Positions 252-60,795 of a stretch of 64,000 bases of DNA are shown here, piece after piece; position 1 is the stretch's first letter; each line of letters starts with the position of its first letter. This DNA is from an uncultured Chloracidobacterium sp. (GTDB lineage Bacteria; Acidobacteriota; Blastocatellia; Pyrinomonadales; Pyrinomonadaceae): positions 13,573-77,572 of the forward strand of contig CAZVDM010000001.1 in the NCBI GenBank assembly GCA_964625555.1, read 5' to 3'. The position numbers and the translations under genes were made by a program. A model generated the notes under the pieces. That model was not told where the DNA came from. It did not search any database and worked only from the letters and a program-made list of their open reading frames with translations.

Positions 252-1607
252 ATGAGAAAATTCCTTGCTGTAGTAAAACACGAATATAAAAAGATCGTCT
301 ATAAATGGACGTTTCTGCTGGGCACACTTTTGTTTCCGTTGATCGGGATCGGATTTGCGGTAGTGCCGGCGATCATTTTTTCGATCAAGGGCGAAGCGAC
401 GCGGATCGTGGTCATCGACCAATCGAATAAGATCGCACCTCGGCTGAGAGAGAATCTATCGTCCGATCGCATTCAAGCAAAGGCACGACAGGCAGCAAAG
501 GAGCAGGTTGGCGATCTAAATGCCTCGCAGGAAGAAAAAATGAAGCGCGGTGCCGATCAGCTCGCGTCCGGATTTATCTTTGTCGAATATGACAGCACTG
601 GAAAATCGGCCGATCAGATCCGTCAGGAACTGAACGCCAAGGCCGCCGCTGACGAGATCGACGCGTATCTTGTCATTCCTTCCGATATAGGATCGAAAAA
701 GGCTGCGTTCGAGTTTCGTTCAAGAAAGGCCGGAGATTTTGTCGCAAACGACACGCTCAAGGACGCCCTGAACGAAGCCGTCCGTTCGCAGCGGCTCGCG
801 GACGCAAATATCAGTGAAACACTGCTCAAGGATCTCAGCCAAAATGTCACATTCGAGTCGAAGGCCATTAGCGAAAAGGGCGAGGAAAAGGATAGCGAAA
901 TGCTTTTTCTTGCGTCGCTTGTCATCGGAATGATGATCTACATCTCGCTGACGATATACGGCCAGGTCATAATGGGAGCGGTCGTTGAGGAAAAGGAAAC
1001 GCGGATCGCCGAGATACTTTTCTCTTCCGCCAGGCCGTTCGAGCTTCTCTTCGGCAAACTCGTCGGCGTTGGTTTGGCAGGCCTTACGCAGCTTGGTATA
1101 TGGGTGATCTCGCTAGCAGGAATGTTAGGGTTTTTGATCGCTCAAGGCGGTGGTGCCGGTGAGCTTCTGGGTTCCTTGCCGAGCATCACGCCGCTAATGG
1201 TCTTTTATTTTTTGATCTATTTTATCGTCGGATATTTCATTTATGCCTCGATATTTGCTTTGATCGGGGCAATGGTCACGACCGTGCAGGAAGGCGGGCA
1301 ATTCGCTTTTCCGCCGATAATGATAATGCTGATCGGTTTCTATTTTTGTTTTGCAGTGATCCGCGACCCGAACTCGGACCTGTCGTTCTGGGTCTCGATC
1401 GCACCGCTTTTCGCCCCGCTCACAATGCCTGTGCGAATACTCGCCGAGATGCCGCCATTCTGGCAGATAGCGCTTTCGATCGGGCTCAATGTACTGACGA
1501 TCGCCTTTCTTGTGTGGATCGCATCGCGAGTGTACCGCGTCGGCATGCTAATGTACGGCAAACGTGCAACTATCCCTGAAGTACTGAAGTGGATCAGGCA
1601 AGCGTAG
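252..1607 (+). CDS. ABC-2 type transporter permease (NatB-like)
   Basis: 451-aa ORF with an N-terminal TM helix, a long extracytoplasmic loop and a C-terminal bundle of about 5 TM helices. This is the ABC2_membrane_3 layout. The ORF is start/stop-coupled to the ATPase gene. Confidence 0.75.
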   Translation: MRKFLAVVKHEYKKIVYKWTFLLGTLLFPLIGIGFAVVPAIIFSIKGEATRIVVIDQSNKIAPRLRENLSSDRIQAKARQAAKEQVGDLNASQEEKMKRGADQLASGFIFVEYDSTGKSADQIRQELNAKAAADEIDAYLVIPSDIGSKKAAFEFRSRKAGDFVANDTLKDALNEAVRSQRLADANISETLLKDLSQNVTFESKAISEKGEEKDSEMLFLASLVIGMMIYISLTIYGQVIMGAVVEEKETRIAEILFSSARPFELLFGKLVGVGLAGLTQLGIWVISLAGMLGFLIAQGGGAGELLGSLPSITPLMVFYFLIYFIVGYFIYASIFALIGAMVTTVQEGGQFAFPPIMIMLIGFYFCFAVIRDPNSDLSFWVSIAPLFAPLTMPVRILAEMPPFWQIALSIGLNVLTIAFLVWIASRVYRVGMLMYGKRATIPEVLKWIRQA

Positions 1608-1641
1608 TCAGTTGTTAGTAGTCAGTTGTCAGTGGTCGGAG
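1607..1641. repeat. Tandem heptamer array (5 units)
   Basis: GTCAGTT GTTAGTA GTCAGTT GTCAGTG GTCGGAG lies between the permease stop and the next start codon. No inverted partner was seen. Confidence 0.6.
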
Positions 1642-3135: not shown

Positions 3136-3729
3136 TCACTCCGCGATCTTGCGTTCGATCCGACGATCGGGGATGAGCCATATTGCGGCGACAATTGCGT
3201 ATAGAATGCCGGCGATGGCTTGATGGGCGAATGCCAGAGGTATCGCGGCGACGTAGCAGGCGATCGAGATCTTGCCCTTGAGATCACCGCCGATGGCGTT
3301 TGCCAATAGCTCGTTCTCGTGCGTGTCGTGTTTGACGATAGCCGTTTGCAGGATCGTGTACGCAACCGCACACATTAACAAAACTACGCCATACATTGAC
3401 GTCGGAAACGGTGCAAAGTGATTTTCGCCCATCCACCCCGTGACGAACGGCACGAGCGAGAGCCAAAACAGCAAGTGCATGTTCGCCCACAGCACTTTGC
3501 CGTTGACCTTTCGCGTTGCCTGGAGCATGTGGTGGTGGTTATTCCAGTAGATCCCAAGATAAATAAAGCTCAGTACATAAGCGACGAATATCCAGAACAG
3601 CGGCCTCAGTGCTTCGAGGTCCGTGCCGTGCGGTATCTTCAGCTCGAGGACCATGATCGTCATAATAATGGCGATAACGGCGTCCGAGAATGCTTCGAGT
3701 CGGGTCTTGTTCATAAGAGTTTTTGCCAC
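3136..3729 (-). CDS. TMEM175 family potassium channel (DUF1211)
   Basis: The N-terminal RLEAFSDAVIAIIMTIMVLEL matches the TMEM175 RxxxFSD signature helix. The protein has 6 TM helices in 197 aa. Confidence 0.85.
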   Translation of the reverse strand: MAKTLMNKTRLEAFSDAVIAIIMTIMVLELKIPHGTDLEALRPLFWIFVAYVLSFIYLGIYWNNHHHMLQATRKVNGKVLWANMHLLFWLSLVPFVTGWMGENHFAPFPTSMYGVVLLMCAVAYTILQTAIVKHDTHENELLANAIGGDLKGKISIACYVAAIPLAFAHQAIAGILYAIVAAIWLIPDRRIERKIAE

Positions 3730-3793
3730 GAATTACACGAATTGCACGAACAAGAAGGAAGAAACAATTATTTTTATTCGTGTAATTCGTGGC
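3725..3793. repeat. Hairpin of inverted 9-mer arrays (CACGAATTN units)
   Basis: Left arm GCCACGAATTACACGAAT(TGCACGAA) and right arm ATTCGTGTAATTCGTGGC form a perfect 18-bp inverted repeat. It overlaps the stop codon of the 3793-4194 gene and the start of the TMEM175 gene. Confidence 0.75.
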
Positions 3794-4194
3794 TAACTTG
3801 CCGGCGGCAATTCCATCTTCACCAGTCCGTCGAACGCTACATGATAGGCGACGCCCTTAATAGGGACGGTCATCTCTTCCTCTGTCTTGCCTTCAGAGTT
3901 GGCGATGCCAACGCTGGCAAAATAGCATGACGCGCCGTGTGCGTTAGCATGTTTAACGAGGTGTTCAAAGGTCTCCTGGTTTTCGATACGGCCGCGGCCG
4001 GGGTACATGGCCGTGCGAACAACGAAGAAGCCGATCTCGCCGTTTTTATGTGCAACGATCTGCGGTTCCTGCATACGATCGGCGTAGACATCGGCAGATT
4101 CGATTTCCCATTCGGCCTCGAGCAGCTGTTTATATACGATCTCGACGCCGAAAGCATGCACGTCGGATTCTTTCATCAATTCCGGTTCTGACAT
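3793..4194 (-). CDS. Hypothetical cytoplasmic protein
   Basis: 133-aa ORF with protein-like composition and no family recognised. Repeat hairpins flank it on both sides. Confidence 0.5.
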   Translation of the reverse strand: MSEPELMKESDVHAFGVEIVYKQLLEAEWEIESADVYADRMQEPQIVAHKNGEIGFFVVRTAMYPGRGRIENQETFEHLVKHANAHGASCYFASVGIANSEGKTEEEMTVPIKGVAYHVAFDGLVKMELPPAS

Positions 4195-4234
4195 TGAGAG
4201 TATTTTACTAGCCGCGAGTGGAATTCCAAAGACG

Positions 4235-4330
4235 GCGGAATAGAACGCGGATCAAGCGGATATGGCGGATCAAGGCGGATGTTAATATGAATTTCAGATC
4301 CGCGAAAATCCGCTCGATCCGCTTCATCCG
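4235..4330. repeat. Hairpin of inverted 9-mer arrays (GCGGATNNN units)
   Basis: The left arm is GCGGATCAA GCGGATATG GCGGATCAAG GCGGATGTT. The right arm is AGATCCGC GAAAATCCGC TCGATCCGC TTCATCCG, with about 4 units per arm. Confidence 0.75.
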
Positions 4331-4355
4331 AGTTCCATTCTGCTATATTACCCAA

Positions 4356-5309
4356 ATGGACATCAACGATATTAAAATCGCCGCCGAACGGATACGGCCT
4401 TACGTCAGGCGGACACATTTGGAATACAGCAACAGCCTGAGTAAACGCATCGGCGTGCATACGTCGGTCAAATTCGAGTTGTTCCAGAAGACCGGAGCGT
4501 TCAAGGCCCGCGGGGCGTTTAACAAACTGCTGACAATGTCAGACGCCGAGCGCGCCAAGGGCGTGGTCGCGGTCAGCGGGGGCAATCATGCGCAGGCGGT
4601 GGCGTATTCCTCGAGCGTCCTGGGTGTTGACGCGGTGATACTAATGCCCGCGAATACGCCGCAGGTCTATGTCGATGCTACGCGGGGTTATGGGGCGACG
4701 GTGGAATTGCAAGAGAATATTGGAGCCGCGTTTGAGAGGGTAAAGGATTTTGAGGCCGAGGGCCGAGTCTTTGTGCATCCGTTTGACGACGAAGTGATCA
4801 TCGCGGGGCAGGGAACCGTCGGGTTGGAGATACTCGAAGACGCTCCGGACACAACAGATATCATCCTCAGCATCGGCGGAGGCGGTTTGGCGGGCGGAGT
4901 TGCGGTGGCGGCGAAGTCCATTGATCCAAACATAAGAATGTGGGCAGTGGAAACGGAAGGAGCCGACGCGATGTCGCGTGCCGTTGCGGCTGGAAAGGTA
5001 GTCGAGATGGACGCCATCACATCGATCGCAAAGACGCTCGGAGCACCTTATGTTTCCGATCTCACGCTCGGGATGGTGCAGAAATACTACGAATCGGTCA
5101 CGGTCGTCACCGATGCCGAAGCTGTCGAAGCGATAGTCTTTATCGCCGAACGCCTCAAGGTCATAACCGAACCCGCCGCCGCCGTGACACTGGTCGCTGC
5201 CGAAAAGCTTCGTGCCAATTTCAACGAAGACAGTCGCGTCGTTCTCATCCTCTGCGGCGGAAACACCGGCGTCAGCGACCTGTGCAGCTATCTTCCGCTG
5301 CTGGGTTAA
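4356..5309 (+). CDS. Threonine/serine dehydratase (PLP-dependent, short catabolic-type form)
   Basis: Contains the PLP-lysine motif TGAFKARGA and the Gly loop GGGGLAGG. The start is set at MDINDIKIAAERI (4356) because the upstream part of the ORF only reads through the repeat element. Confidence 0.85.
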   Translation: MDINDIKIAAERIRPYVRRTHLEYSNSLSKRIGVHTSVKFELFQKTGAFKARGAFNKLLTMSDAERAKGVVAVSGGNHAQAVAYSSSVLGVDAVILMPANTPQVYVDATRGYGATVELQENIGAAFERVKDFEAEGRVFVHPFDDEVIIAGQGTVGLEILEDAPDTTDIILSIGGGGLAGGVAVAAKSIDPNIRMWAVETEGADAMSRAVAAGKVVEMDAITSIAKTLGAPYVSDLTLGMVQKYYESVTVVTDAEAVEAIVFIAERLKVITEPAAAVTLVAAEKLRANFNEDSRVVLILCGGNTGVSDLCSYLPLLG

Positions 5310-5395
5310 GGTCAGAATGACGTGCGTGAGAGGGTGGCGTGAACTTGCGTGTCGATCGAGGTCCAGGCCGCCCGCTTACGCAGGCGGTTCTGACC
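5310..5395. repeat. REP-doublet (REPIN-like) palindromic element, copy 1
   Basis: GGTCAGAATGACGTGCGTGAGAGGGTGGCG ... CCGCCCGCTTACGCAGGCGGTTCTGACC. The better-preserved right arm (CCGCCCGC-TTAC-GCAGGCGG) is itself a stem-loop. The element starts immediately after the dehydratase stop codon. Confidence 0.7.
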
Positions 5396-5476: not shown

Positions 5477-5535
5477 TGCGGCCGTTAACTGAGCGAAAAA
5501 GCTCATTGAAACCATTGGATCATCACTGTGCCATT

Positions 5536-5618
5536 GAAAACCCCGCGACCTACCTTGAAAACCCTGAGGTCTTGGCGAAAACCCCGCAACCTGCGGTGAA
5601 AACCGCCGGGGCTTGATT
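5536..5618. repeat. Four direct repeats with ~21-bp phasing (GAAAACC cores)
   Basis: GAAAACC begins at 5536, 5557, 5577 and 5598, giving spacings of 21, 20 and 21 nt. Confidence 0.6.
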
Positions 5619-5799: not shown

Positions 5800-6534
5800 A
5801 TGGCAACAAATACTCAATTTGACTGGAGGCGTTCGGATCGCCGTGTATATGCGGCGGTCGCGGTGTTCTTTGTGTTAGTGGTCTTACTGGGATTCGGGCG
5901 GACCTACTATTTTAGGTTTGTGCTGGACGGTCCGGCGGTGCCGTCGATGCTCGTTCATTTGCATGGATTTGTAATGACGTTGTGGGTTGCTTTCTTTGTT
6001 TCGCAGGTATGGCTGATCCGCACAATGCGGGCTAAGGTCCATATGAATATGGGCATTCTCGGCATCGCCTTGGCAACTGTCGTCGTTGTGGTCGGGTTCT
6101 TTACCGGTGCGGCAGCCGCTAAGAATGGTTCGGCCGCGTCGCCTCCGGATATTCCGCCGCTGGCTTTTTTCATTGTGCCGTTCTTCGACATCGTATTGTT
6201 TGCGGCTTTCTTTGCAGCGGCGATCTACTACCGCAAACGGCTCGCGGATCACAAGAGGTTGATGCTGCTAACGGTGATCAACTTTCTGCCTCCCGCGGTG
6301 GCTCGGATCCCAATTCCGGCTCTTCAAGCTTTCGGCCCCTTATTCTTCTTTGGTATCCCAACACTTTTGGCGCTCGGATTTATCATCTACGACACAGTTA
6401 GGAACGGTAAGCTCAATAAGCCGTTTGCGATCGGTGCTGCCATATTGATCGCATCATATCCGCTGCGGTTGATGGCTTCAGAGACGAGTGCGTGGATGAG
6501 TTTCGCCGCGTGGATAACAAGTTGGGCAGCCTGA
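5800..6534 (+). CDS. Polytopic membrane protein of unknown function
   Basis: 244 aa with about 7 predicted TM helices. No family was recognised. Confidence 0.55.
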   Translation: MATNTQFDWRRSDRRVYAAVAVFFVLVVLLGFGRTYYFRFVLDGPAVPSMLVHLHGFVMTLWVAFFVSQVWLIRTMRAKVHMNMGILGIALATVVVVVGFFTGAAAAKNGSAASPPDIPPLAFFIVPFFDIVLFAAFFAAAIYYRKRLADHKRLMLLTVINFLPPAVARIPIPALQAFGPLFFFGIPTLLALGFIIYDTVRNGKLNKPFAIGAAILIASYPLRLMASETSAWMSFAAWITSWAA

Positions 6535-6541
6535 GTCACTT

Positions 6542-9382
6542 CTATTTATTCAAATCGGGCAATATCGCGTCAAAGGCTTCGCGGATGGCGAGACGGTGCG
6601 CCGTGAGATGTTCGAGGAGTTCGGCGGGGGACCCGAGACCCATGCGTTCGGCGATCGTCGCAAGTGCAGTTTGGTTGGCGATCGGAAGCCGCGTCGTCCG
6701 GCCTATCGTGAGACGAAGCTGGTGATCGAGAGCCGAGAGGAATTCATGGCCGGCTCGCAAAGACTTGAGACTAGAGACGGGAGACGGGGGAAGCGAGACG
6801 GGAGACGGGAGACTAGAGACGGGAGACAGACTATCAGTCGCGGTCGAATGATTAGTATATTTGGTTATGAGTTTGTCTAGCATTGCCGCTGTGGAACGCG
6901 GATTCTCCGGTTCCTGTTCACCCTTCTCCCGTCTCTTGTCTCCTGTCTCATTGTCTTCACCAACGTCCGGCACATTATCTCTAAGCTGCAGATATCGCAT
7001 CGCAAAGTAGATATCGAGCATGCCGCCGCTGCCGTATTTGATATCGATGTCGCCGCCACGTTGCGGACGAGCACGCTGCTTTTCTAAGGCTAGCCGGACG
7101 CGGCGGGTCTCTTGTCGGAGTTCGTCCGCGTCGACCGTCAGGGCACGTTCATGGATGATGCGGCGGGTTTCACTCTCGACATTCCTGGCAAGGCTTTCAT
7201 CACCGCCGACGGCACGCAGTTTGACGAATGCGAGCATCTCCCAGATGGCCGCCGTATCTCGCATATAGTCGAGAAAGGCGTCGATGGAGATGGCTGTCAT
7301 TCCCTTCGAGCCAAACGGACGGAGGCGGAGATCGACTCGATACAGATTGCCGTCGCGAGTCATCGATGAGAGTGTCGTGGTAAAGAGTTCTACCGTCCGC
7401 GCGTAGAATTCCGCCGCCGACAAGCCGGCGATCTGGTGCCCCGGATCAAAATAGACGATCACCAGATCAAGGTCCGAGTCGTAATCAAGCCCACGGCCGC
7501 CGAGCTTTCCGAGTGCGAGGATCGCGATATCGAGATTGACTTCGTACGGACGATAGCGGTTGATCAATTCATCGCGGACGACCTCGAGAGCGGCCTCGAT
7601 ACACGCTTCGGCAAGCTCGGTCTGTGCCCGTTTCGCTTCGCTGAGCGTCAATTTGCCAAAGATGTCACGAACGACCAACTCAAGCAGCAGCCGCGACCAT
7701 ACCTTTCGCATAGCCGACAAACGGCGGCCGAAATCTCTCGTACCGTCGATCGCCGCGGTCATTATCATCTCGTAATCGGGCTGTTCAAACTCGTCGTCAG
7801 GGTCAAGTAGATCTACAGCGAGCTGTGGGTTAGCGGCCAGCATCGATGCAAAATGCGGCGAAATGGCGATCACACGTTCGAGGACAGCGGCACTTTTCGT
7901 GGTCGGATCATAGGTGACGGACGATTTCTCGATCGAAGCAAGAATGTGTGAACGGGTTCTCTCGGCCGTGTCCGGTACCTCGGTAATGTCGAGATCGGTC
8001 ACGGCGGCAGGCGTTTCACCGAATATCCGTGTAAAGATACGGCTGACATTTCCGGTAGTTTCGATGAGGTCCGATTCGAATTCACCTGCGGAAGCAAAGG
8101 CCATTTTGCGGGCGAGCAGAGCACGTTTTTCAGGTTCAGCGGGTATCGTGTGGGTCTGAACGCCGTTCTTCATTTGCAGCACATGCTCGGCACGGCGCAG
8201 GAATTCGTAGGCGGCGGAAAGTTCGGACAATTCCGATTCTGAAATGTACTTGCGGTCCGCCAGCCGGGACAAACTGATAAGCGTGTGAGGTGACCGCAGC
8301 CATTTATCTTTGCCGCCATAAGCGAGCTGAAGTGCCTGGGCGAGAAATTCGATCTCGCGGATTCCGCCGCGGCCGAGTTTGACGTCGAAACCGCGTTTGT
8401 TGATGTTCTCGAGATCGATCCGTTCCTTTGAACGGCGAACGTTTGCGAGTGCGGTCTCTATCGTTTCTTTGCGTGAAAAGATCAGATCCTCGACCGCAGA
8501 TATGAATTGCTTGAATAGATCGGTGTCGCCTGCGCAGCCGCGGGAACGGATCAGCACCTGCCGTTCCCAGGCACGAGCCTCGGTCTTGAAATAGCGGATC
8601 ATATCGCCGACCGAGAATGCCAAAGCTCCGAGCGAACCGTGCGGACGAAGCCGTAAGTCGACTCGATATGCTGCACCCTCGCCGGACGGCGAGCCGACGA
8701 GTTTTGTGATATATTCGGCGAGTTTTACAAAATACTCGCGGTTTGTAACGCTCTCGCGCGAACCGCCTGTTGTCTTTCCCTCGGCGGAATAGATGAATAA
8801 TAGGTCGATATCGGAAGAATAGTTGAGTTCCTTAGAGCCGAGCTTGCCGAGTGCAGCAATACAGAATCCCGAGGGAGTAAAGCGGCCTTTGGCATCAGTT
8901 TGCTGCGGCTGGCCGAATCGATTATCGATCTCACGCCGGGCGCGTTCGAGAGCGGACTCAAGGATCGCGTCGGCAAGATTGGAGATCTCTTCGGTGATCT
9001 CGGCTATAGTAGCAAGCCGGCGAATATCGCGGAGGTAGATCCGCAGAAGTTCCCGGCGACGAAAACGTGCAAAGAGAACCTGAGGTTCGAGCTGGGAATT
9101 GGTAAGAGCGAAGCGGGCCAGCGATTCGAGCAGCTCTTCGCGGCCGCGAACGCCTGATTCGAGGCGTTTGCGGCCAAGCCACCAAATGTAGTCGGGATGC
9201 TGAAGCAGCGTGGTCGACAGCAGCGGGCTGAACGAGACCAGAGTCAGCACATCGGACAAAAGGCCTTCTTGTTTGAGCAGCTTCTCGGATTGCGACGGAT
9301 GCTGCTCGGCAAACTGGCCGAGAAATCGCCGGGCTGCATCGGCGTCGGGCAGGTCTCGGATCAATTGTTCTACTTTGCGCAT
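6542..9382 (-). CDS. glnE: Bifunctional glutamine synthetase adenylyltransferase/adenylyl-removing enzyme
   Basis: 946 aa with two nucleotidyltransferase modules (GKLGSKELNYSSDIDL and GKLGGRGLDYDSDLDL) plus GlnE-specific helical domains. Confidence 0.9.
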   Translation of the reverse strand: MRKVEQLIRDLPDADAARRFLGQFAEQHPSQSEKLLKQEGLLSDVLTLVSFSPLLSTTLLQHPDYIWWLGRKRLESGVRGREELLESLARFALTNSQLEPQVLFARFRRRELLRIYLRDIRRLATIAEITEEISNLADAILESALERARREIDNRFGQPQQTDAKGRFTPSGFCIAALGKLGSKELNYSSDIDLLFIYSAEGKTTGGSRESVTNREYFVKLAEYITKLVGSPSGEGAAYRVDLRLRPHGSLGALAFSVGDMIRYFKTEARAWERQVLIRSRGCAGDTDLFKQFISAVEDLIFSRKETIETALANVRRSKERIDLENINKRGFDVKLGRGGIREIEFLAQALQLAYGGKDKWLRSPHTLISLSRLADRKYISESELSELSAAYEFLRRAEHVLQMKNGVQTHTIPAEPEKRALLARKMAFASAGEFESDLIETTGNVSRIFTRIFGETPAAVTDLDITEVPDTAERTRSHILASIEKSSVTYDPTTKSAAVLERVIAISPHFASMLAANPQLAVDLLDPDDEFEQPDYEMIMTAAIDGTRDFGRRLSAMRKVWSRLLLELVVRDIFGKLTLSEAKRAQTELAEACIEAALEVVRDELINRYRPYEVNLDIAILALGKLGGRGLDYDSDLDLVIVYFDPGHQIAGLSAAEFYARTVELFTTTLSSMTRDGNLYRVDLRLRPFGSKGMTAISIDAFLDYMRDTAAIWEMLAFVKLRAVGGDESLARNVESETRRIIHERALTVDADELRQETRRVRLALEKQRARPQRGGDIDIKYGSGGMLDIYFAMRYLQLRDNVPDVGEDNETGDKRREKGEQEPENPRSTAAMLDKLITKYTNHSTATDSLSPVSSLPSPVSLPPSPVSSLKSLRAGHEFLSALDHQLRLTIGRTTRLPIANQTALATIAERMGLGSPAELLEHLTAHRLAIREAFDAILPDLNK
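6767..6956. repeat. Inverted heptamer arrays inside glnE
   Basis: Nine tandem GAGACGG-type heptamers lie at 6767-6829 and five reverse-complement CNGTCTC heptamers at 6922-6956. They are translated as SLSPVSSLPSPVSLPPSPVSSLKS and EDNETGDKRREKGEQEPE. Confidence 0.75.
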
Positions 9383-9421: not shown

Positions 9422-10900
9422 TCATCGGCGGAATCGCTTTCGATCGATCTCGTATTTTACTATTTTATAGCCGAGAATGCGTTCGGTCGAATCGAGCATT
9501 ATCGCGGCCTTCGCGACATTGCCGCGTGTGGATTTTAGCGTATCGATGATCAAGTCCCGCTCAAAGGCCTCGACCGCCGACGCAAGCGTTACACGGGTCT
9601 CGGTACCGCTGACCTCGGCGGTTTGCAGCGTCGGCGGCAAATGATGGCCGTGAATGACATTCGAATCGCAGACGAGCACCGAGCGTTCGATGACATTTTC
9701 AAGCTCACGCACATTGCCGGGATAATGATAGGCAGTGAGCATGTCGATCGCCGGCGTCGAAATGCGCTTGACGTTCTTTTTGTGTTCACGCTCGTACTTT
9801 TCGAGGAAATGCTCGGCAAGCAGCAGAATGTCGGACTTTCGTTCGCGTAGCGGCGGAAGATAAATCGTAAAGCCGCCCAGCTGATCTAACAGTTCACCGT
9901 CAAACGTGCCCACGCGAACCGCGTCCGCCAGATCCTGACTGGACGATGCGATAAGACGGACGTTGACGGGAAACTCTTCGCCGCTGTCCGTGCGTACGAA
10001 TTTGCGTTCCTGCACCGCACGGAGCACCTTGGACTGGAGATGGAGCGGCAGACCGCCCACTTCGTCAAAATAAAGCGTTCCGCCGTCGGCAAGTTCAAAG
10101 CGGCCCTTCTTATCCGATCCGAAGATCTCGTTTTCGATCAACGCGTCGGGCACATCAGAGCAGTTTAGCTTTACGAACGAGCGTTTCGAACGCAGGCTGT
10201 TGTAATGGATCGCGCCGGCGATAAGTTCCTTACCGGTTCCGTGTTCTCCGCGGAGAAGCACGGTCGAATTCGATCGTGCGATCTGCGTTACTTGATCGAG
10301 GGCGGCGCGCATCGCTCCGGAGTTGCCGATGAGCTGCGACAGGTCATACTTTTGCCTGAGCTCCTGCTTTAGGTGAAGATTTTCCTCGGCGAGTTTGCGG
10401 TTTGCGGCGTCCATCATCCGCTCGACGAGCATCGCCTGCGCAATAACAGAGGCGAATGCACCGAGCACTCTGACCACTCGGTTCTCTTCAACGCGCGATC
10501 CGCCGCGAAAACCCGCCGCGACCATGCCGACGGTCTTGCCTTTCACCGATACCGGGACAGCCACGAGGAAGCGGGTTTGCGTGCCAAATGCCAGGAAATC
10601 AAGTGCACGATCGGTACCGACATCATCGATAGCGAGAGGTTTTGAAAGCTCGAACATACGCCAAAGGCTGCTCTTTGCAATGCGCGATTCGAGGCGGCGA
10701 AAATCGGCGACGCCGACGCCTTCGGCCGCGACGAGGTCGGCGACGCCGTCGTCGGCACGCTGCCGGACGATGAATGCAACGTCAGCCGACAATGCGTGAA
10801 TTACGGTCTTCGTCACGACGCTTGCTCCATCGCGAAGCCCGCTGCCGTCCGCGAAAGCCCTGGCCGCCTTCGCGATGAGATCGATGTGGTCGAGTTTCAT
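9422..10900 (-). CDS. GAF-domain AAA+ transcriptional regulator of the NtrC/TyrR class (GAFTGA loop absent), C-terminal Fis-type HTH
   Basis: Contains Walker A GEHGTGKE, an R-finger region and WPGNVREL-like YPGNVRELEN. Where NtrC has FGHEKGAFTGA, this protein has FGSDKKGRFELADGGTLYFDEVG. The start is set at MKLDHIDLI (10900). Confidence 0.85.
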   Translation of the reverse strand: MKLDHIDLIAKAARAFADGSGLRDGASVVTKTVIHALSADVAFIVRQRADDGVADLVAAEGVGVADFRRLESRIAKSSLWRMFELSKPLAIDDVGTDRALDFLAFGTQTRFLVAVPVSVKGKTVGMVAAGFRGGSRVEENRVVRVLGAFASVIAQAMLVERMMDAANRKLAEENLHLKQELRQKYDLSQLIGNSGAMRAALDQVTQIARSNSTVLLRGEHGTGKELIAGAIHYNSLRSKRSFVKLNCSDVPDALIENEIFGSDKKGRFELADGGTLYFDEVGGLPLHLQSKVLRAVQERKFVRTDSGEEFPVNVRLIASSSQDLADAVRVGTFDGELLDQLGGFTIYLPPLRERKSDILLLAEHFLEKYEREHKKNVKRISTPAIDMLTAYHYPGNVRELENVIERSVLVCDSNVIHGHHLPPTLQTAEVSGTETRVTLASAVEAFERDLIIDTLKSTRGNVAKAAIMLDSTERILGYKIVKYEIDRKRFRR

Positions 10901-11089
10901 TTTACCTACAAAATTGTAGCGCAAACGGCAGAGCAATGGCGGAAACACGACCGGTAGGGAGTGTGTTCGTACGGCTCGGCGATGCCCAACGTGCTCTAAC
11001 GATCGACGGATAAAGTCGATCACCGGGAATACAATCCCTACCGGTCGTGATTCTGCCTCGCACGACACGCGATACGCTATAATCAAGTA

Positions 11090-12046
11090 GTGGAAACGCG
11101 TGTACACATCACGGCTGCATCCGAGCACAACAAAATGCGGCTCGAAGACTTCCTGCTCGGGCAATTTCGCTCGTTGAGCAAGATGTATCTTCGCGCGGTT
11201 GTGAAGGCCGAAAGGTGCGAAGTAAACGGACGTTGGGAAAACCGCGGTTACAAACTGCGGCCGAACGATTTCGTTGAGATCATGGTCGATCACACCCGCG
11301 GGACCGCTATGCAGCCGCAGGAGATCGGGCTCGATATCATCTTCGAAGACGACGAACTCATCGTCATCAACAAGCCCGAAGACATGTTGATGCATCCCTC
11401 GCATCGGGACAACAGCGGGACGCTGCTGAATGCCCTCGCGCATTACCTTAATGAAGGTGAGGAGTGGAGGAGTGGAGGAGTAGAGGAGTTAGATCACGAT
11501 CTCCCTCACTCCTCTACTCCTTCACTCCTGTACTCCTCCACTCGCCCAGTCGTCCGCCCGGGCCTTCCGCACAGGCTTGACAGGCTTACGTCGGGGCTTG
11601 TGGTCGTTACTAAGACCGCGCGGGCTCATCGGGTTATTTCGGGGCATTTTTTGAAGAAAAGAGTAGAGAAGCTGTATCTTGCGTTGGTTGACGGAGTGGT
11701 TGAGCAGGATAGCGGGACGATCGACGCGCCTATTGGGCGGTTTGCTGATATCAAACTTTGGGGCGTGAAGGACGACGGGAAGCAGGCTGTGACCAATTAC
11801 AAGGTTCGTGCGCGTTACGACAATACGACACTGCTCGAACTGGAGCCGGTCACGGGCCGTACGAATCAGCTTCGGATCCACACCGCGCATATTGGGCATC
11901 CGATCGTGGGCGATGTGCAGCGTGCGGGGACGGAATACCGGCGTCTATGTTTGCACGCCTATCGTCTTGCGTTCCCGCACCCGACGACGCGGGAGATGGC
12001 GCGGTTTGAGAGGGAAGTTGTGTTCCGGTCAGAACCGCCTGCGTAA
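11090..12046 (+). CDS. RluA-family pseudouridine synthase with N-terminal S4 domain
   Basis: Contains the HRLDRLTSGLVVV catalytic motif and an S4-like N-terminus. GTG start at 11090, with an alternative ATG at 11135. The last 6 codons and the stop lie inside a REPIN-like element. Confidence 0.85.
   Translation: METRVHITAASEHNKMRLEDFLLGQFRSLSKMYLRAVVKAERCEVNGRWENRGYKLRPNDFVEIMVDHTRGTAMQPQEIGLDIIFEDDELIVINKPEDMLMHPSHRDNSGTLLNALAHYLNEGEEWRSGGVEELDHDLPHSSTPSLLYSSTRPVVRPGLPHRLDRLTSGLVVVTKTARAHRVISGHFLKKRVEKLYLALVDGVVEQDSGTIDAPIGRFADIKLWGVKDDGKQAVTNYKVRARYDNTTLLELEPVTGRTNQLRIHTAHIGHPIVGDVQRAGTEYRRLCLHAYRLAFPHPTTREMARFEREVVFRSEPPA
11458..11543. repeat. Hairpin of inverted octamer arrays inside the rluA-family gene
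   Basis: The left arm is TGAGGAGT GGAGGAGT GGAGGAGT AGAGGAGT. An 18-nt loop contains the palindrome AGATCACGATCT. The right arm is ACTCCTCT ACTCCTTC ACTCCTGT ACTCCTCC ACTC. Confidence 0.8.
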
Positions 12047-12113
12047 GCGGGCGGCATGGACGTTGAATTTGCGCGACGGGCGTGCCCCCCGCTTATGCAG
12101 GGGGTTCTGGCAC
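12027..12113. repeat. REP-doublet (REPIN-like) palindromic element, copy 2
   Basis: GGTCAGAACCGCCTGCGTAAGCGGGCGG ... CCCCCCGCTTATGCAGGGGGTTCTGGCAC, with the same arm sequence as copy 1. Each arm is a GC stem with a GTAA or TTAT loop. Confidence 0.75.
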
Positions 12114-26761: not shown

Positions 26762-26769
26762 GTTTAACG

Positions 26770-26837
26770 GACAATTGATAATGGATAATGGAAAGTAAAT
26801 TGCCATTATCCGTTTTCCATTGTCCATTTTCCATTGA
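26770..26837. repeat. Hairpin of inverted heptamer arrays between acpP and fabF
   Basis: The left arm is GACAATT GATAATG GATAATG GAAAGTA. The right arm is CCATTAT CCGTTTT CCATTGT CCATTTT CCATTGA and ends 3 nt before the fabF ATG. Confidence 0.75.
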
Positions 26838-26840
26838 ATT

Positions 26841-28082
26841 ATGAAACGTCGTGTAGTAGTTACAGGACTTGGTTTAGTGACGCCGTGCGGAAACGACGTG
26901 CCCACCACCTGGAGCGCGTTGATGAATGGCGTCAGCGGCGCCGACTATATCAAGAAATTTGATGCCGAGAAATATTCGGCCAAGTTTGCGTGTGAAGTAA
27001 AGGATTTCGATCCGCTGAATTTTCTCGATAAGAAAGAAGCTCGCAGGATGGGAGCCTTCACGCATTTCGCTCTGGCCGCTTCTGATGAGGCAATGAAGCA
27101 CAGTGGACTCGTCATTGACGAGTCTAACGCTGAGATGGTTGGAACGTATATCAGTTCCGGCATCGGCGATTTCTGGGCGATCGAGCGCGAGCACGAGAAA
27201 CTGCTCAATTCCGGGCCTGACCGCGTTTCGCCGTTCTTTATCGTTTCGGCGATCGTCAATTTGGCATCAGGCAATGTGTCGATACGGCACGGTGCTAAAG
27301 GGCCGAATTCGGCGACAGCAACGGCCTGTTCTGCAGGTGCTCATGCAATAGGCGACAGCTTTCGTATTATTGAACGCGGTGATGCAGACGCAATGATCTG
27401 CGGCGGAGCCGAAAGTGCGATCACGCCAATGTCCGTTGCCGGATTTGCATCGATGCGGGCGTTGTCTACTAGGAATGACGATCCGAAGCACGCATCGCGT
27501 CCTTTCGATCTCACGCGGGACGGTTTTGTGATAGGTGAAGGCGCCGGACTTCTGATCCTGGAAGAGTTGGAATTTGCGAAAGCTCGCGGTGCCAACATTC
27601 TAGCGGAGGTTGTCGGTTACGGAATGAGCGGAGATGCTTTTCACGTGACAATGCCTGACGAGACAGGGTCCGGCGCTATTCGTGTGATGGAACGTGCGCT
27701 AAAGGATGCCGGGATTCGCCCCGACGAGATCGGATATATAAATGCTCACGGAACCTCAACGCCGTACAACGACAAGTTCGAAACGCTGGCCATTAAGAAA
27801 GTCTTTGGAGAAAACGCTTACAACATTCCGGTAAGCTCGACAAAATCTATGACGGGTCACGCCCTCGGTGCGGCCGGCGGGCTTGAAGCGGTGTTTTCTG
27901 TGAAGGTGCTTAATGAAAACAAACTACCGCCGACGATCAATTACGAATTCCCTGATCCCGACTGCGACCTCGATTACGTTCCGAACGCTGCCCGAGAAGC
28001 AACGGTGGACTATGTCCTGTCGAACAACTTCGGCTTCGGCGGAACAAACGCGTGTTTGATATTTAAGCGATATTCCGAATAA
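26841..28082 (+). CDS. fabF: 3-oxoacyl-ACP synthase II
   Basis: 413 aa with active-site Cys ACSAGAH, HGTSTP and GHALGAAG motifs. Confidence 0.9.
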
Positions 28083-48797: not shown

Positions 48798-50078
48798 ATG
48801 AGTGATGCCCTAGAACCAACCGCCCCAAAACTATCGACTGTAGACAAGCTGCGTCTATTGCTGGACATTACCAAGACCATCAGTCGTTCGCTTGATCTCG
48901 ACGAGGTTCTCAATCTTGTAATGGACACGCTCGGGTCGCTAATTCCATACGACGCGGCCGGGATCTATCTCATAGAATTTGGAGCCGAAGAAAAGAGCCC
49001 TTACGTTTTCAAATCAAAGGTAATTCGCGGCTATCAGATCAGTTTTGACCTGATCGAACCGCGACTGAAGATCGGCGAGGGCTTTCTCGGAACGGTCGCT
49101 CAGACCGGCAAGCCGATCATCTCGCACGATGTGAGCAAGGACGAGCGATATTTCGCGGCACGCGAACTGACAAAGTCCGAAATGCTCTGTCCTATCATCT
49201 CGAATGAACACGTCATCGGTGTCTTCGATCTCGAAAGCGACAGCCTTGACGCATATTCGGAAGACGACCTCGAGGTAATGCAGCTCCTCACATCGCAGGT
49301 CGCTATCATTATTGAAAAGGTTAGGCTCCATGACGAGGTCGTTGAGAAAAAGCGTATACAGGCGCAGCTCGAGATCGCTCGATCGGTCCAACTCGAGCTG
49401 CTGCCCGAAAATGACCCCGTCGTTCCAAATTTCGACATCAGTGCGTATGTTTTTCCGACCGAGGAAGTTTCCGGCGACTATTACGACTGGGTCAAGGTGT
49501 TTGACGATCAGGTCGGTATAGTTGTCGCGGATGCGGTCGGAAAGGGAATTCCGGCGGCTCTGCTGATGTCGTTCTTGCGGGCGTGCTTGAGGTCGTGCGT
49601 ACAGATCGGATATGCACCGCACATTGCTTTTTCAAAGGTGAGCAATTTGCTGCGCGATTCGATCGAGGACAATCAATTCATTACCGCGATATACGGGCTT
49701 CTCGATTCGACCAACAAAACATTTGTATTCTCGAACGCCGGCCATAATCCGCCTCTGCTGATCCAGCCGGACGGCGAATACCGCTTCGTCGAATACGGTG
49801 ATATGCCGTTGGGGATGTTCGATGATATCCATTATCACCAGCACTTCATCCGTTTTGTGCCTGGCATGGTGATGGTTATCTATACCGACGGCATTACCGA
49901 AGCTGCCAATCCGAATGGCGAGGAATATGGAAATGAACGTTTCGCCGCGCGCGTCCTAGATGGCATCGATATGCCTGCAAAAAAGATGATCGACCACATA
50001 CGAAAAGGCGTGGCCGATTTTACCGAACGCAAGTTTCTAGACGATGACGGAACGTTGTTTATCGTCAAAGCGGAGTAG
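48798..50078 (+). CDS. GAF domain plus PP2C/SpoIIE-type serine phosphatase (RsbU-like)
   Basis: An N-terminal GAF domain followed by a C-terminal SpoIIE domain (SGDYYDW ... DGITEA ... DDGTLFIV). Confidence 0.85.
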   Translation: MSDALEPTAPKLSTVDKLRLLLDITKTISRSLDLDEVLNLVMDTLGSLIPYDAAGIYLIEFGAEEKSPYVFKSKVIRGYQISFDLIEPRLKIGEGFLGTVAQTGKPIISHDVSKDERYFAARELTKSEMLCPIISNEHVIGVFDLESDSLDAYSEDDLEVMQLLTSQVAIIIEKVRLHDEVVEKKRIQAQLEIARSVQLELLPENDPVVPNFDISAYVFPTEEVSGDYYDWVKVFDDQVGIVVADAVGKGIPAALLMSFLRACLRSCVQIGYAPHIAFSKVSNLLRDSIEDNQFITAIYGLLDSTNKTFVFSNAGHNPPLLIQPDGEYRFVEYGDMPLGMFDDIHYHQHFIRFVPGMVMVIYTDGITEAANPNGEEYGNERFAARVLDGIDMPAKKMIDHIRKGVADFTERKFLDDDGTLFIVKAE

Positions 50079-50081
50079 GCT

Positions 50082-50149
50082 AGTAAAGAGTAAAAGTGAA
50101 AGAGTGAAAAAGTATCGCGAGATAAACTCGAACTTTTTCACTCTTTCAC
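50082..50149. repeat. Hairpin of inverted 8-mer arrays (GTGAAAGA units)
   Basis: GTGAAAGAGTGAAAAAGT (50096-50113) and ACTTTTTCACTCTTTCAC (50132-50149) form a perfect 18-bp inverted repeat. There are extra AGTAAAG units on the left. Confidence 0.75.
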
Positions 50150-50186
50150 AGTTTCCGAGCGTTTGTTCAGTTGTTGGAAATTGCTA

Positions 50187-60720: not shown

Positions 60721-60795
<75 letters not shown>

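Follow-up and report, generated by a model that had tools for sequence, protein, structure and literature searches.

Among described repeats with some likeness to those reported here, the Rickettsia palindromic elements (RPE) were reportedly presented by Ogata et al. in 2000 as selfish palindromic repeats lying in frame within protein-coding genes. A second point of reference is formed by the heptameric repeats of Xanthomonas and Nostoc, to which the cyanobacterial short tandemly repeated repetitive (STRR) heptamers are related. The Xanthomonas heptamer GGGAATC occurs as 70 to 75 convergent inverted pairs, and the Nostoc heptamer is GGGGAYT (PMC4692102). The term Rickettsia palindromic elements is in use in the literature (e.g., in PMC1779305), coding palindromes in the form of long inverted repeats in protein-coding genes are known from the mitochondria of Nematomorpha (PMC6649704), and extragenic palindromes of the repetitive extragenic palindromic (REP) and bacterial interspersed mosaic element (BIME) type are treated in PMC3733652. 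The literature searched yielded no account of hairpins built from repeats in Acidobacteria. Here, we analyze a stretch of 64,000 nucleotides from an uncultured Chloracidobacterium sp. of the family Pyrinomonadaceae (contig CAZVDM010000001.1; hereafter, the window), in which the gene glnE carries two arms of tandem heptamers that are reverse complements of each other, are both translated, and lie on either side of native coding sequence. On balance, and with modest confidence, we read this feature as a nonmobile, locally generated coding quasi-palindrome that arose from a heptamer microsatellite, was built by slippage, has been kept by template switching, and is tolerated in permissive loops.

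The locus resembles RPE in that hairpin DNA is translated in frame in housekeeping genes, within surface loops, and is present or absent depending on the orthologue. Unlike RPE, which are dispersed consensus copies inserted as one contiguous piece, the glnE unit is locus-specific and forms a tandem-heptamer stem, with arms split by a 92-nt stretch in which the native RSTxxMLxxL sequence lies. With the Xanthomonas heptamers it shares tandem 7-nt units arranged as inverted array pairs, potential stem-loops, and array lengths that vary between related genomes, and the intergenic members of the window likewise lie near stop codons between co-oriented genes. However, the Xanthomonas and Nostoc heptamers use one genome-wide unit and avoid coding regions, whereas here each locus has its own unit and the members in glnE and in a second gene, rluA, are translated. 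As in the Nematomorpha mitochondrial palindromes, both arms are translated in a compromise between secondary structure and protein sequence, yet those arms are perfect, nonrepetitive, and part of conserved protein, while the glnE arms are lineage-specific, of low complexity, and composed of tandem units. REP/BIME elements are short hairpins in operon-internal spacers after stop codons, and a 27-nt palindrome present in two copies in the window (Table 1) is such a case; unlike REP, the glnE arms are tandem, lack a conserved sequence, and are not extragenic.

The product of glnE (946 residues) matches PF03710 in two stretches (E = 1.6e-104) and PF08335 in two stretches (E = 2.4e-34). It thus has the GlnE family layout of two PF03710 nucleotidyltransferase domains with a helical PF08335-type domain after each, and it also matches the Escherichia coli GlnE structures 3k7d and 1v4a. 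Genic or intergenic status was assigned throughout from open reading frame (ORF) logic and Pfam in place of curated annotation. The protein is identical (100%) to homologue P0001, and the named homologues belong to the Pyrinomonadaceae (phylum Acidobacteriota). An initial annotation had reported nine GAGACGG-type heptamers, read in frame within GlnE, and both statements are borne out: the whole lies in one ORF, the translations given for arrays and spacer (EDNETGDKRREKGEQEPE, NPRSTAAMLDKLITKYTNHSTATD, and SLSPVSSLPSPVSLPPSPVSSLKS) are exact, and five of the nine units are perfect and one divergent, with a degenerate tenth at 6760-6766. Its count of five CNGTCTC heptamers was slightly generous; three (CCGTCTC, TTGTCTC, and CTGTCTC) are good reverse-complement units, but both outer units are degenerate, leaving a core at 6922-6949. 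Between the arms, whose cores are separated by the 92-nt spacer, 24 residues are translated.

As inverted repeats, the arms are 78% complementary over 45 nt and 92% complementary over 25 nt. In Tandem Repeats Finder (TRF) the left array has a period of 7 (7.7 copies, 78% matches), and a period of 21 scores better (85% matches, score 82). GAGACGG itself occurs 11 times in the window versus 10.7 times expected by chance, with 5 of the 11 packed into a 50-nt stretch inside the left array; the signal therefore lies in the clustering and not in the word. C-terminal of the arrays, GlnE retains the invariant residues F881, L882, D886, H887, R890, L891, G894, and R895, and in-frame read-through of the arrays is therefore required.

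Table 1. Positions of the glnE arms, of modeled segments of GlnE, and of other repeats in the window and in related loci
Feature	Position	Strand	Description
glnE (glutamine synthetase adenylyltransferase/adenylyl-removing enzyme)	6542..9382	-	Single uninterrupted ORF, 946 aa; Pfam
Left array, nine heptamers	6767-6829	+ strand reading	GAGACTA GAGACGG GAGACGG GGGAAGC GAGACGG GAGACGG GAGACTA GAGACGG GAGACAG
Right array	6922-6956	+ strand reading	CCTTCTC CCGTCTC TTGTCTC CTGTCTC ATTGTCT
Arm 1 core	6922..6949	-	Coding strand, four purine-rich heptamers: GAGACAG GAGACAA GAGACGG GAGAAGG
Arm 2	6760..6829	-	Ten pyrimidine-rich heptamers; residues 852-874 (LSPVSSLPSPVSLPPSPVSSLKS); coding strand: CTGTCTC CCGTCTC TAGTCTC CCGTCTC CCGTCTC GCTTCCC CCGTCTC CCGTCTC TAGTCTC AAGTCTT
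Site-1 insertion	6899..6964	-	Residues 807-828 (VGEDNETGDKRREKGEQEPENP), between P805-D806 and R829-S830-T831
Native inter-arm segment	6830..6898	-	Residues 829-851 (RSTAAMLDKLITKYTNHSTATDS); RSTAAMLDKL...; hairpin loop if arms pair
AlphaFold2, helix	Residues 788-801		High confidence
AlphaFold2, stretch with arm 1	Residues 802-830		10-residue block means 60-79; lowest 60-68 over 811-830
AlphaFold2, native helix	Residues 831-851		Block mean pLDDT 92 (831-840), 79 (841-850)
AlphaFold2, coil with arm 2	Residues 852-868		Block mean pLDDT 52 (851-860)
AlphaFold2, helix	Residues 869-892		High confidence
rluA hairpin	11459..11543	+	(GAGGAGTG)x4, 12-nt loop, (CACTCCTC)x4-5; in frame
Intergenic hairpin	26765..26836	.	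(TAATGGA)n, 5-nt loop, (TCCATTx)n; unit contains TAA
Intergenic hairpin	50082..50154	.	AAAGAGTG-type octamers and complement; unit contains TGA
Spacer hairpin	3722..3796	.	CACGAATTA 9-mers and complement; 21-nt arms, 95% complementary
glnE-660 hairpin, L021	11964-12077		Unit GTTCCAA
glnE-660 hairpin, L022	6440-6550		Unit ATTCCRG
glnE-660 hairpin, L038	8004-8110		Unit GTCCAAA
Dispersed 27-nt REP-like palindrome	5368-5394; 12028-12054	+; -	CCGCCCGCTTACGCAGGCGGTTCTGAC; two identical copies
Inverted ATTGCGG/CCGCAAT heptamer arrays	L011 2244-2683; L002 1179-1618		373 nt apart
Nonrepetitive 31-nt inverted repeat	10938-11057		87% complementary, 58-nt spacer
Direct repeat of about 21 nt	5535-5604		TGAAAACCCCGCGACCTnnGG, 3-4 copies; spacer from PALP-family gene (4218..5309) to membrane-protein ORF (5800..6534)
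GTCAGTT/GTAGTCAGTTGTCA tandem array	1604-1637		About 10 nt upstream of ATG at 1650

For the 120 best homologues of GlnE we aligned the C termini, and for 48 loci we took out the DNA lying between YFAMRYLQL and LDHxLRL. In 30 of the 48 Pyrinomonadaceae orthologous loci this region is in a 177-nt base state reading ...LQLRDNVPD-xxxDRSTxFMLERLKAxGSLxxxxxxxLxAGYxFLSxLDHNLRL, versus 300 nt in the window. Relative to this base state, window GlnE has 18 extra residues after VPD (site 1, with the purine arm, where base-state orthologues have 4 residues) and 23 extra residues before LRAGHEFL (site 2, with the pyrimidine arm), and the native landmarks VPD, RSTxxMLxxL, and LRAGHEFLSALDHQLRL are preserved. 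RSTxxMLxxL was found in all 120 homologues, with S830 and T831 invariant and P805, D806, M834, L835, and L838 nearly so, and G878, F881, and L882 are also retained. The proposal in the initial annotation that low-complexity arms had been added on either side of native sequence is supported by this alignment, and the added segments, far from being conserved in GlnE of unrelated taxa, are absent from most relatives.

In an AlphaFold2 model of GlnE, computed from a 75-sequence alignment (mean predicted local distance difference test score [pLDDT], 84.8), the flanking helices have pLDDT values of >90, and the arms are modeled as two loops, one at each end of the native helix, in the C-terminal helical subdomain (Table 1). 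The initial annotation had placed the arrays at the linker before the LRxAYxFLRxLE helix of E. coli GlnE, and this holds only in part: VSSLKSLRAGHEFLSALDHQLRL was aligned by phmmer to GlnE chain 1v4a, but 1v4a represents the paralogous N-terminal domain. The phmmer alignment of window GlnE to the structure of the C-terminal domain, 3k7d, ends at YLQLR.

Pairing of the arms, suggested earlier for both mRNA and single-stranded DNA, is predicted for both, with z scores of about -4.5. The coding strand folds as mRNA at -92 kcal/mol (z = -4.64) and the + strand as DNA at -48.1 kcal/mol (z = -4.37), no equally stable fold being obtained from 200 dinucleotide shuffles in either case, and arm 1 pairs with arm 2 in the minimum-free-energy folds. 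Across array-bearing loci, fold z scores range from -2.3 to -8.1, and those of array-free orthologues are near 0 (mononucleotide shuffles).

The comparison of orthologues shows that the two arms covary from lineage to lineage. Array-bearing GlnE proteins (P0001 to P0007 and P0009) form one clade in a neighbor-joining tree, itself approximate, that was computed after the variable region had been masked. At the same two sites, units differ between sister lineages, and the arms are complementary within each lineage. Arm 1 and arm 2, in coding orientation, are built from GAGACNG and CNGTCTC in the window, in L042 (93% identical protein), and in L051 (79%); from GTGAGAA and TTCTCAC in L043 (86%); from GGAGAAGA and CTTCTCC in L045 (84%); from GAGGAGTG and CACTCCTC in L047 (84%); and from GRGGAGTN and ACTCCCCT in L050 (79%). 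Split GAGACNG and CNGTCTC arms are also seen in L019, which lies outside the main array clade. A matrix of duplex energies between every arm 1 and every arm 2 falls into blocks by unit type, with own-type pairing the best: the GAGACNG group ranges from -45 to -75 kcal/mol internally versus -30 to -46 kcal/mol with other types, and the L047 pair reaches -84 kcal/mol versus -62 or weaker with any other arm. Chance complementarity of two independent microsatellites is ruled out by the presence of an own matching pair in each array-bearing lineage.

Selection on the two loops as protein, in which one loop, charged and flexible, and another, rich in proline and serine, would modulate GlnE with the complementarity being incidental, appears very improbable. 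It would suit the position of the loops at either side of a conserved helix, as well as L049, in which a long insertion persists as protein after the repeats have decayed and complementarity is lost (z = -0.9), but it does not predict eight lineages with their own complementary arms made of different units, and the peptide sequences differ strongly between lineages. The duplex-energy matrix already points to more complementarity between the arms than constraints from codons and composition would give. On our preferred reading, the 41-residue low-complexity addition to the protein (a charged E/D/K/R/G loop plus an S/P/V/L loop) is translated and tolerated and most likely serves no function of its own.

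Changes in array length are visible among close relatives. Six relatives at >=93% identity (the five others of the window's 90% cluster and P0002) all lack SSLPSPV in arm 2, giving 939 aa in close relatives versus 946 aa in window GlnE; P0123 is longer at the N terminus only. At the DNA level, the window and L042 differ by one clean 21-nt indel, equal to three heptamers, that lies in arm 2 and keeps the frame. Arm 1 is DNA-identical in L042; the other five relatives, known from protein data only, depart from it at one or two residues. Frameshifted alleles in the glnE region were found neither among the seven closest sequences nor among the 48 loci. A metagenome scan for closer relatives returned four loci only, at 57 to 58% identity, and a genome-contig scan gave nothing closer than 70% besides one truncated contig. 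For L024, a contig whose end might have been put down to assembly failure at the repeats, this cause is ruled out, its end lying near residue 545.

These length data also bear on the idea of a phase-variation (contingency) locus, in which a change of one heptamer would shift the frame and reversibly switch off the C-terminal adenylyltransferase domain. The arrays are within an ORF, they have a unit whose length is not divisible by three, and length varies among close relatives, as this idea would have it; nevertheless, we consider it far-fetched. With 78% matches the arrays are imperfect, a condition that suppresses slippage; all the variation observed amounts to +/-21 nt and is in frame, with no frameshift in the sequences just mentioned, and the same kind of array occurs in rluA, where switching has no obvious use.

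An assembly artefact, which the initial annotation had named as a danger to its reading, is ruled out by the in-frame architecture, which is identical in independent assemblies, and by the preserved frame. The glnE region is DNA-identical between L043 (JGI) and L044 (ENA), between L045 and L046 (two NCBI metagenome-assembled genomes [MAGs]), and between L047 (NCBI) and L048 (Logan). All of the relatives stem from metagenome assemblies, and arrays may be wrongly sized where short reads were assembled.

How such a structure could arise and persist can be outlined in a few steps. Hairpins with stems of 7- to 10-nt tandem units abound in Pyrinomonadaceae genomes, mostly in short intergenic spacers directly behind stop codons and, in a few cases, in permissive protein loops. 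Each arm would grow and shrink by replication slippage, with genic survivors keeping the frame and heptamers therefore changing in 21-nt steps. Intrastrand template switching or hairpin-templated correction may then make the arms reverse complements and keep them matched as a new unit spreads, and one arm would be a reverse-complement copy of the other across the native helix-coding segment, in either direction. Purifying selection at the protein level acts as a filter, leaving in-frame, almost always stop-free units in low-confidence surface loops only. Because a heptamer array runs through three frames, units made of purines alone (no T), with complements made of pyrimidines alone (no A), are natural survivors. 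A frameshift is avoided only by length steps of three units, in agreement with the indel of 21 nt and with the higher-order period of 21 nt.

Template switching would explain why the arms flank native sequence and why both change unit jointly without functional selection. It is known to create reverse-complement repeats and to fix stem pairing (PMC8794818), and PMC8604942 describes it as homogenizing inverted-repeat arms in coding sequence; template-switch (quasi-palindrome) mutagenesis as a maker and keeper of hairpins also appears in PMC13100816. Its products are reverse-complement copies of nearby sequence, inverted-repeat arms made longer and more alike, and multibase "compensatory" changes that need no selection, which is what arms covarying around native sequence would call for. 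Template switching is, however, a mechanism and not a family, and it is undescribed on tandem-unit arms in bacterial genes.

Several observations weigh against a quasi-palindrome generated and kept by such a process. No template-switch event was directly reconstructed or polarized among the loci compared. Arms covary by unit type across lineages, whereas the sole very recent change, the 21-nt indel, hits one arm alone, and the arm lengths are unequal (28 nt versus 70 nt), which is unexpected under a tight copying mechanism. P0008/L052 has no arrays and a base-like region, yet it is nested in the array-bearing clade of the neighbor-joining tree, so that loss, recombination, or repeated gain has played a part in the history. 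In about 18 of 20 distinct hairpins built from repeats, the arm richer in purines is the 5' one, a property that reads alike on both strands and that the quasi-palindrome model does not explain. Furthermore, the persistence of complementarity across a clade with GlnE proteins 79 to 93% identical, and the return of hairpins to the same small set of loops, would fit selection for structure equally well; with genic hairpins at only a few sites among about 700 genes of a biased sample, the pattern looks like site-specific persistence rather than random generation and filtering.

The stem might instead be a selected cis-acting structure for which any complementary repeat suffices, the sequence drifting while pairing is kept, a scenario that we regard as unlikely. 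At the mRNA level, candidates would be a site of RNase III-type processing or decay, or else a pause for the ribosome or RNA polymerase between folding units; at the DNA level, they would be a cruciform or a structure-specific protein-binding site, as proposed for REP elements. Such selection would account for complementarity kept through at least five unit types across eight lineages, for strong fold outliers in most lineages (z of -4 to -8), for unrelated hairpin kinds at the same positions of glnE and rluA, for intergenic members directly past stop codons, like mRNA-stabilizing REP elements, and for similar arms bracketing an ORF of the 23S rRNA intervening-sequence family in L011 and L002. 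On the other side, 30 of the 48 orthologous loci have no insertion, and the structure is therefore dispensable for GlnE; L049 has lost the pairing and kept the insertion; and the arms are unequal in length and loose in register. The sense strand shows no enrichment of mismatches compatible with G-U pairing, as a selected mRNA stem would lead one to expect, and the antisense fold is the more stable one in six of eight glnE lineages.

Selection on a sense-mRNA stem gains no support from the comparison of folds, with this antisense preference in glnE and no consistent strand bias at rluA or at a second glnE site near residue 660 (see below). Taken with the insertion-free loci and with the Rfam and terminator results that follow, the comparison argues against a dedicated mRNA function and leaves a DNA-level or strand-independent role standing. 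At gathering thresholds, the Rfam scan of the window had a tRNA at 60721-60792 as its sole hit, and subthreshold miRNA-precursor hairpins (15.8 to 25.6 bits versus gathering thresholds of 60 to 99) were all that a permissive scan of 6600-7100 gave; neither a terminator nor a promoter pattern was found in the glnE array region. The broader idea that Pyrinomonadaceae may hold actively maintained tandem-unit hairpins, with coevolving arms, kept positions including sites within the essential genes glnE and rluA, and a stem that is used, has in our view a rather low probability. If they are maintained, the stem could be a structure-specific signal for processing, decay, or pausing, or represent a stem-only relative of the intervening sequence (IVS)-like elements of L011 and L002; in that event, the glnE stem would be a regulatory RNA or DNA structure spanning a native protein helix, its translation merely forced.

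The glnE arms are not a one-off but one member of a lineage-wide class of hairpins. We surveyed the window and 52 loci (786 kb) by TRF; every locus was fetched via glnE, and the sample is hence glnE-centered and biased for the genic fraction. About 25 inverted pairs of 7- to 10-nt tandem arrays were observed in the 786 kb, with a different unit at almost every locus; the five hairpins of the window have five different units. Genic hairpins among the approximately 700 genes of this biased sample were confined to glnE (in two places) and rluA, and outside these two genes the class is mostly intergenic. Both arms are free of stop codons in all frames for 12 of 13 genic units versus 6 of 13 intergenic units.

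In rluA, the hairpin lies inside the gene of an RluA-type pseudouridine synthase (11090..12046; PF00849), where it encodes EGEEWRSGGVEELDHDLPHSSTPSLLYSST in the loop directly before the catalytic HRLD motif and folds as RNA at -62.7 kcal/mol. The distance from GTLLNAL to HRLD is 81 to 87 nt in base-state orthologues versus 165 nt in the window. At least six other kinds of hairpin insert, or no insert, are found in this loop in orthologues, among them arrays of GAGAAGAG, GAGAAAAG, GCGGAAT, or GAACGCG and dispersed palindromes. The second glnE hotspot, near residue 660, falls in the second nucleotidyltransferase domain, in the loop behind its DLDL motif. Three species have contiguous hairpins there in place of the native loop, built from related units (Table 1), and eight other loci have a different 10-residue insert (..RASRESSRLLPG..).

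The three remaining hairpins of the window come immediately behind stop codons, within or bordering the short spacers that separate co-oriented ORFs. The one at 26765-26836 lies between a short ORF ending in ...VEQHKAA*, which we take to be acyl-carrier-protein-like, and a + strand ORF starting at 26841, presumably FabF-like. The hairpin at 50082-50154 begins 4 nt past the stop codon of ORF 48798..50078, and that at 3722-3796 is mostly in the spacer of two minus-strand ORFs, with its arm ends overlapping both ORF ends. Intergenic hairpins have an A-rich 5' arm and a T-rich 3' arm, like bidirectional terminators, but the purine bias of the 5' arm extends to genic hairpins as well.

In-frame insertion of palindromic repeats in permissive loops clearly occurs in these genomes, and this raises a further explanation, namely, that a mobile hairpin element of the RPE or MITE (miniature inverted-repeat transposable element) type was inserted in frame and then rearranged, or that two elements were inserted at two loops. 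The dispersed palindrome CCGCCCGCTTACGCAGGCGGTTCTGAC, present twice in the window and with related copies in seven loci, would be in keeping with mobility. Its copy at 12028-12054 overlaps the rluA stop codon and encodes the last residues (..SEPPA*), and related palindromes, translated in frame, yield PPAYAGGSD/SPPYEGGV-type peptides in rluA of L045 and L024 (with related forms in L001 and L002), in site 1 of GlnE (P0035, P0037, and P0074), and in a pyrB-like ORF (L011 2635-3759). The units GAGGAGTG, GAGAAGAG, and GCGGAAT also recur at different genes of different genomes. However, the GAGACNG arrays are not dispersed: dimers of this unit were found at the glnE site and nowhere else in 56 loci (about 790 kb), and elsewhere in the window, away from the array, GAGACGG is no commoner than chance. 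In addition, the sequence between the arms is native and position-conserved coding sequence, which is impossible from one insertion. Neither terminal inverted repeats distinct from the arrays nor a target-site duplication were identified, although no systematic search for them was made. We therefore judge an origin from a mobile element to be quite improbable.

Other unrelated long inserts occur at site 1 in the GlnE homologues P0067, P0107, P0050, and P0053, e.g., WNAGDSPATTQSGVMPATYRDTKCNRERTQSDSPRASETLTL in P0067. A PRASETL-like motif is also seen in the rluA loop of L006. Judging from sequence, the P0067-type inserts and the L006 motif suggest a further dispersed palindrome that may be read in frame.

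The loci L011 and L002 each have inverted ATTGCGG/CCGCAAT heptamer arrays on either side of a 118-aa ORF belonging to PF05635 (E = 6e-16), the family of 23S rRNA intervening-sequence proteins. This 23S_rRNA_IVP element sits between pyrR-like and pyrB-like genes, and its right arm is translated as the N terminus of the pyrB-like product. The stems of 23S rRNA intervening-sequence elements are RNase III substrates. A tblastn search found no further array-flanked 23S_rRNA_IVP genes beyond L011 and L002.

As these findings show, about 120 nt of self-complementary microsatellite can be accommodated, and translated, within the gene of a central metabolic regulator, under constraints (stop-free units and length steps of three units) that are clear and testable. 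Joint unit switching offers a natural test between "compensatory" stem evolution by selection and template switching alone. The Pyrinomonadaceae are flagged as a group of free-living soil bacteria in which, much as in Rickettsia, several kinds of hairpin repeat have colonized the same protein loops again and again. Moreover, such arrays make the protein lengths in MAG annotations larger and more varied, and genes may be mis-sized there in short-read assemblies.

Additional repeats in the window belong to other kinds. No inverted partner was found for the tandem array at 1604-1637, and a direct repeat fills part of a spacer at 5535-5604 (Table 1). The nonrepetitive inverted repeat at 10938-11057 is located where rluA and the ORF of a sigma-54 activator (9422..11443, probably starting further in) diverge.

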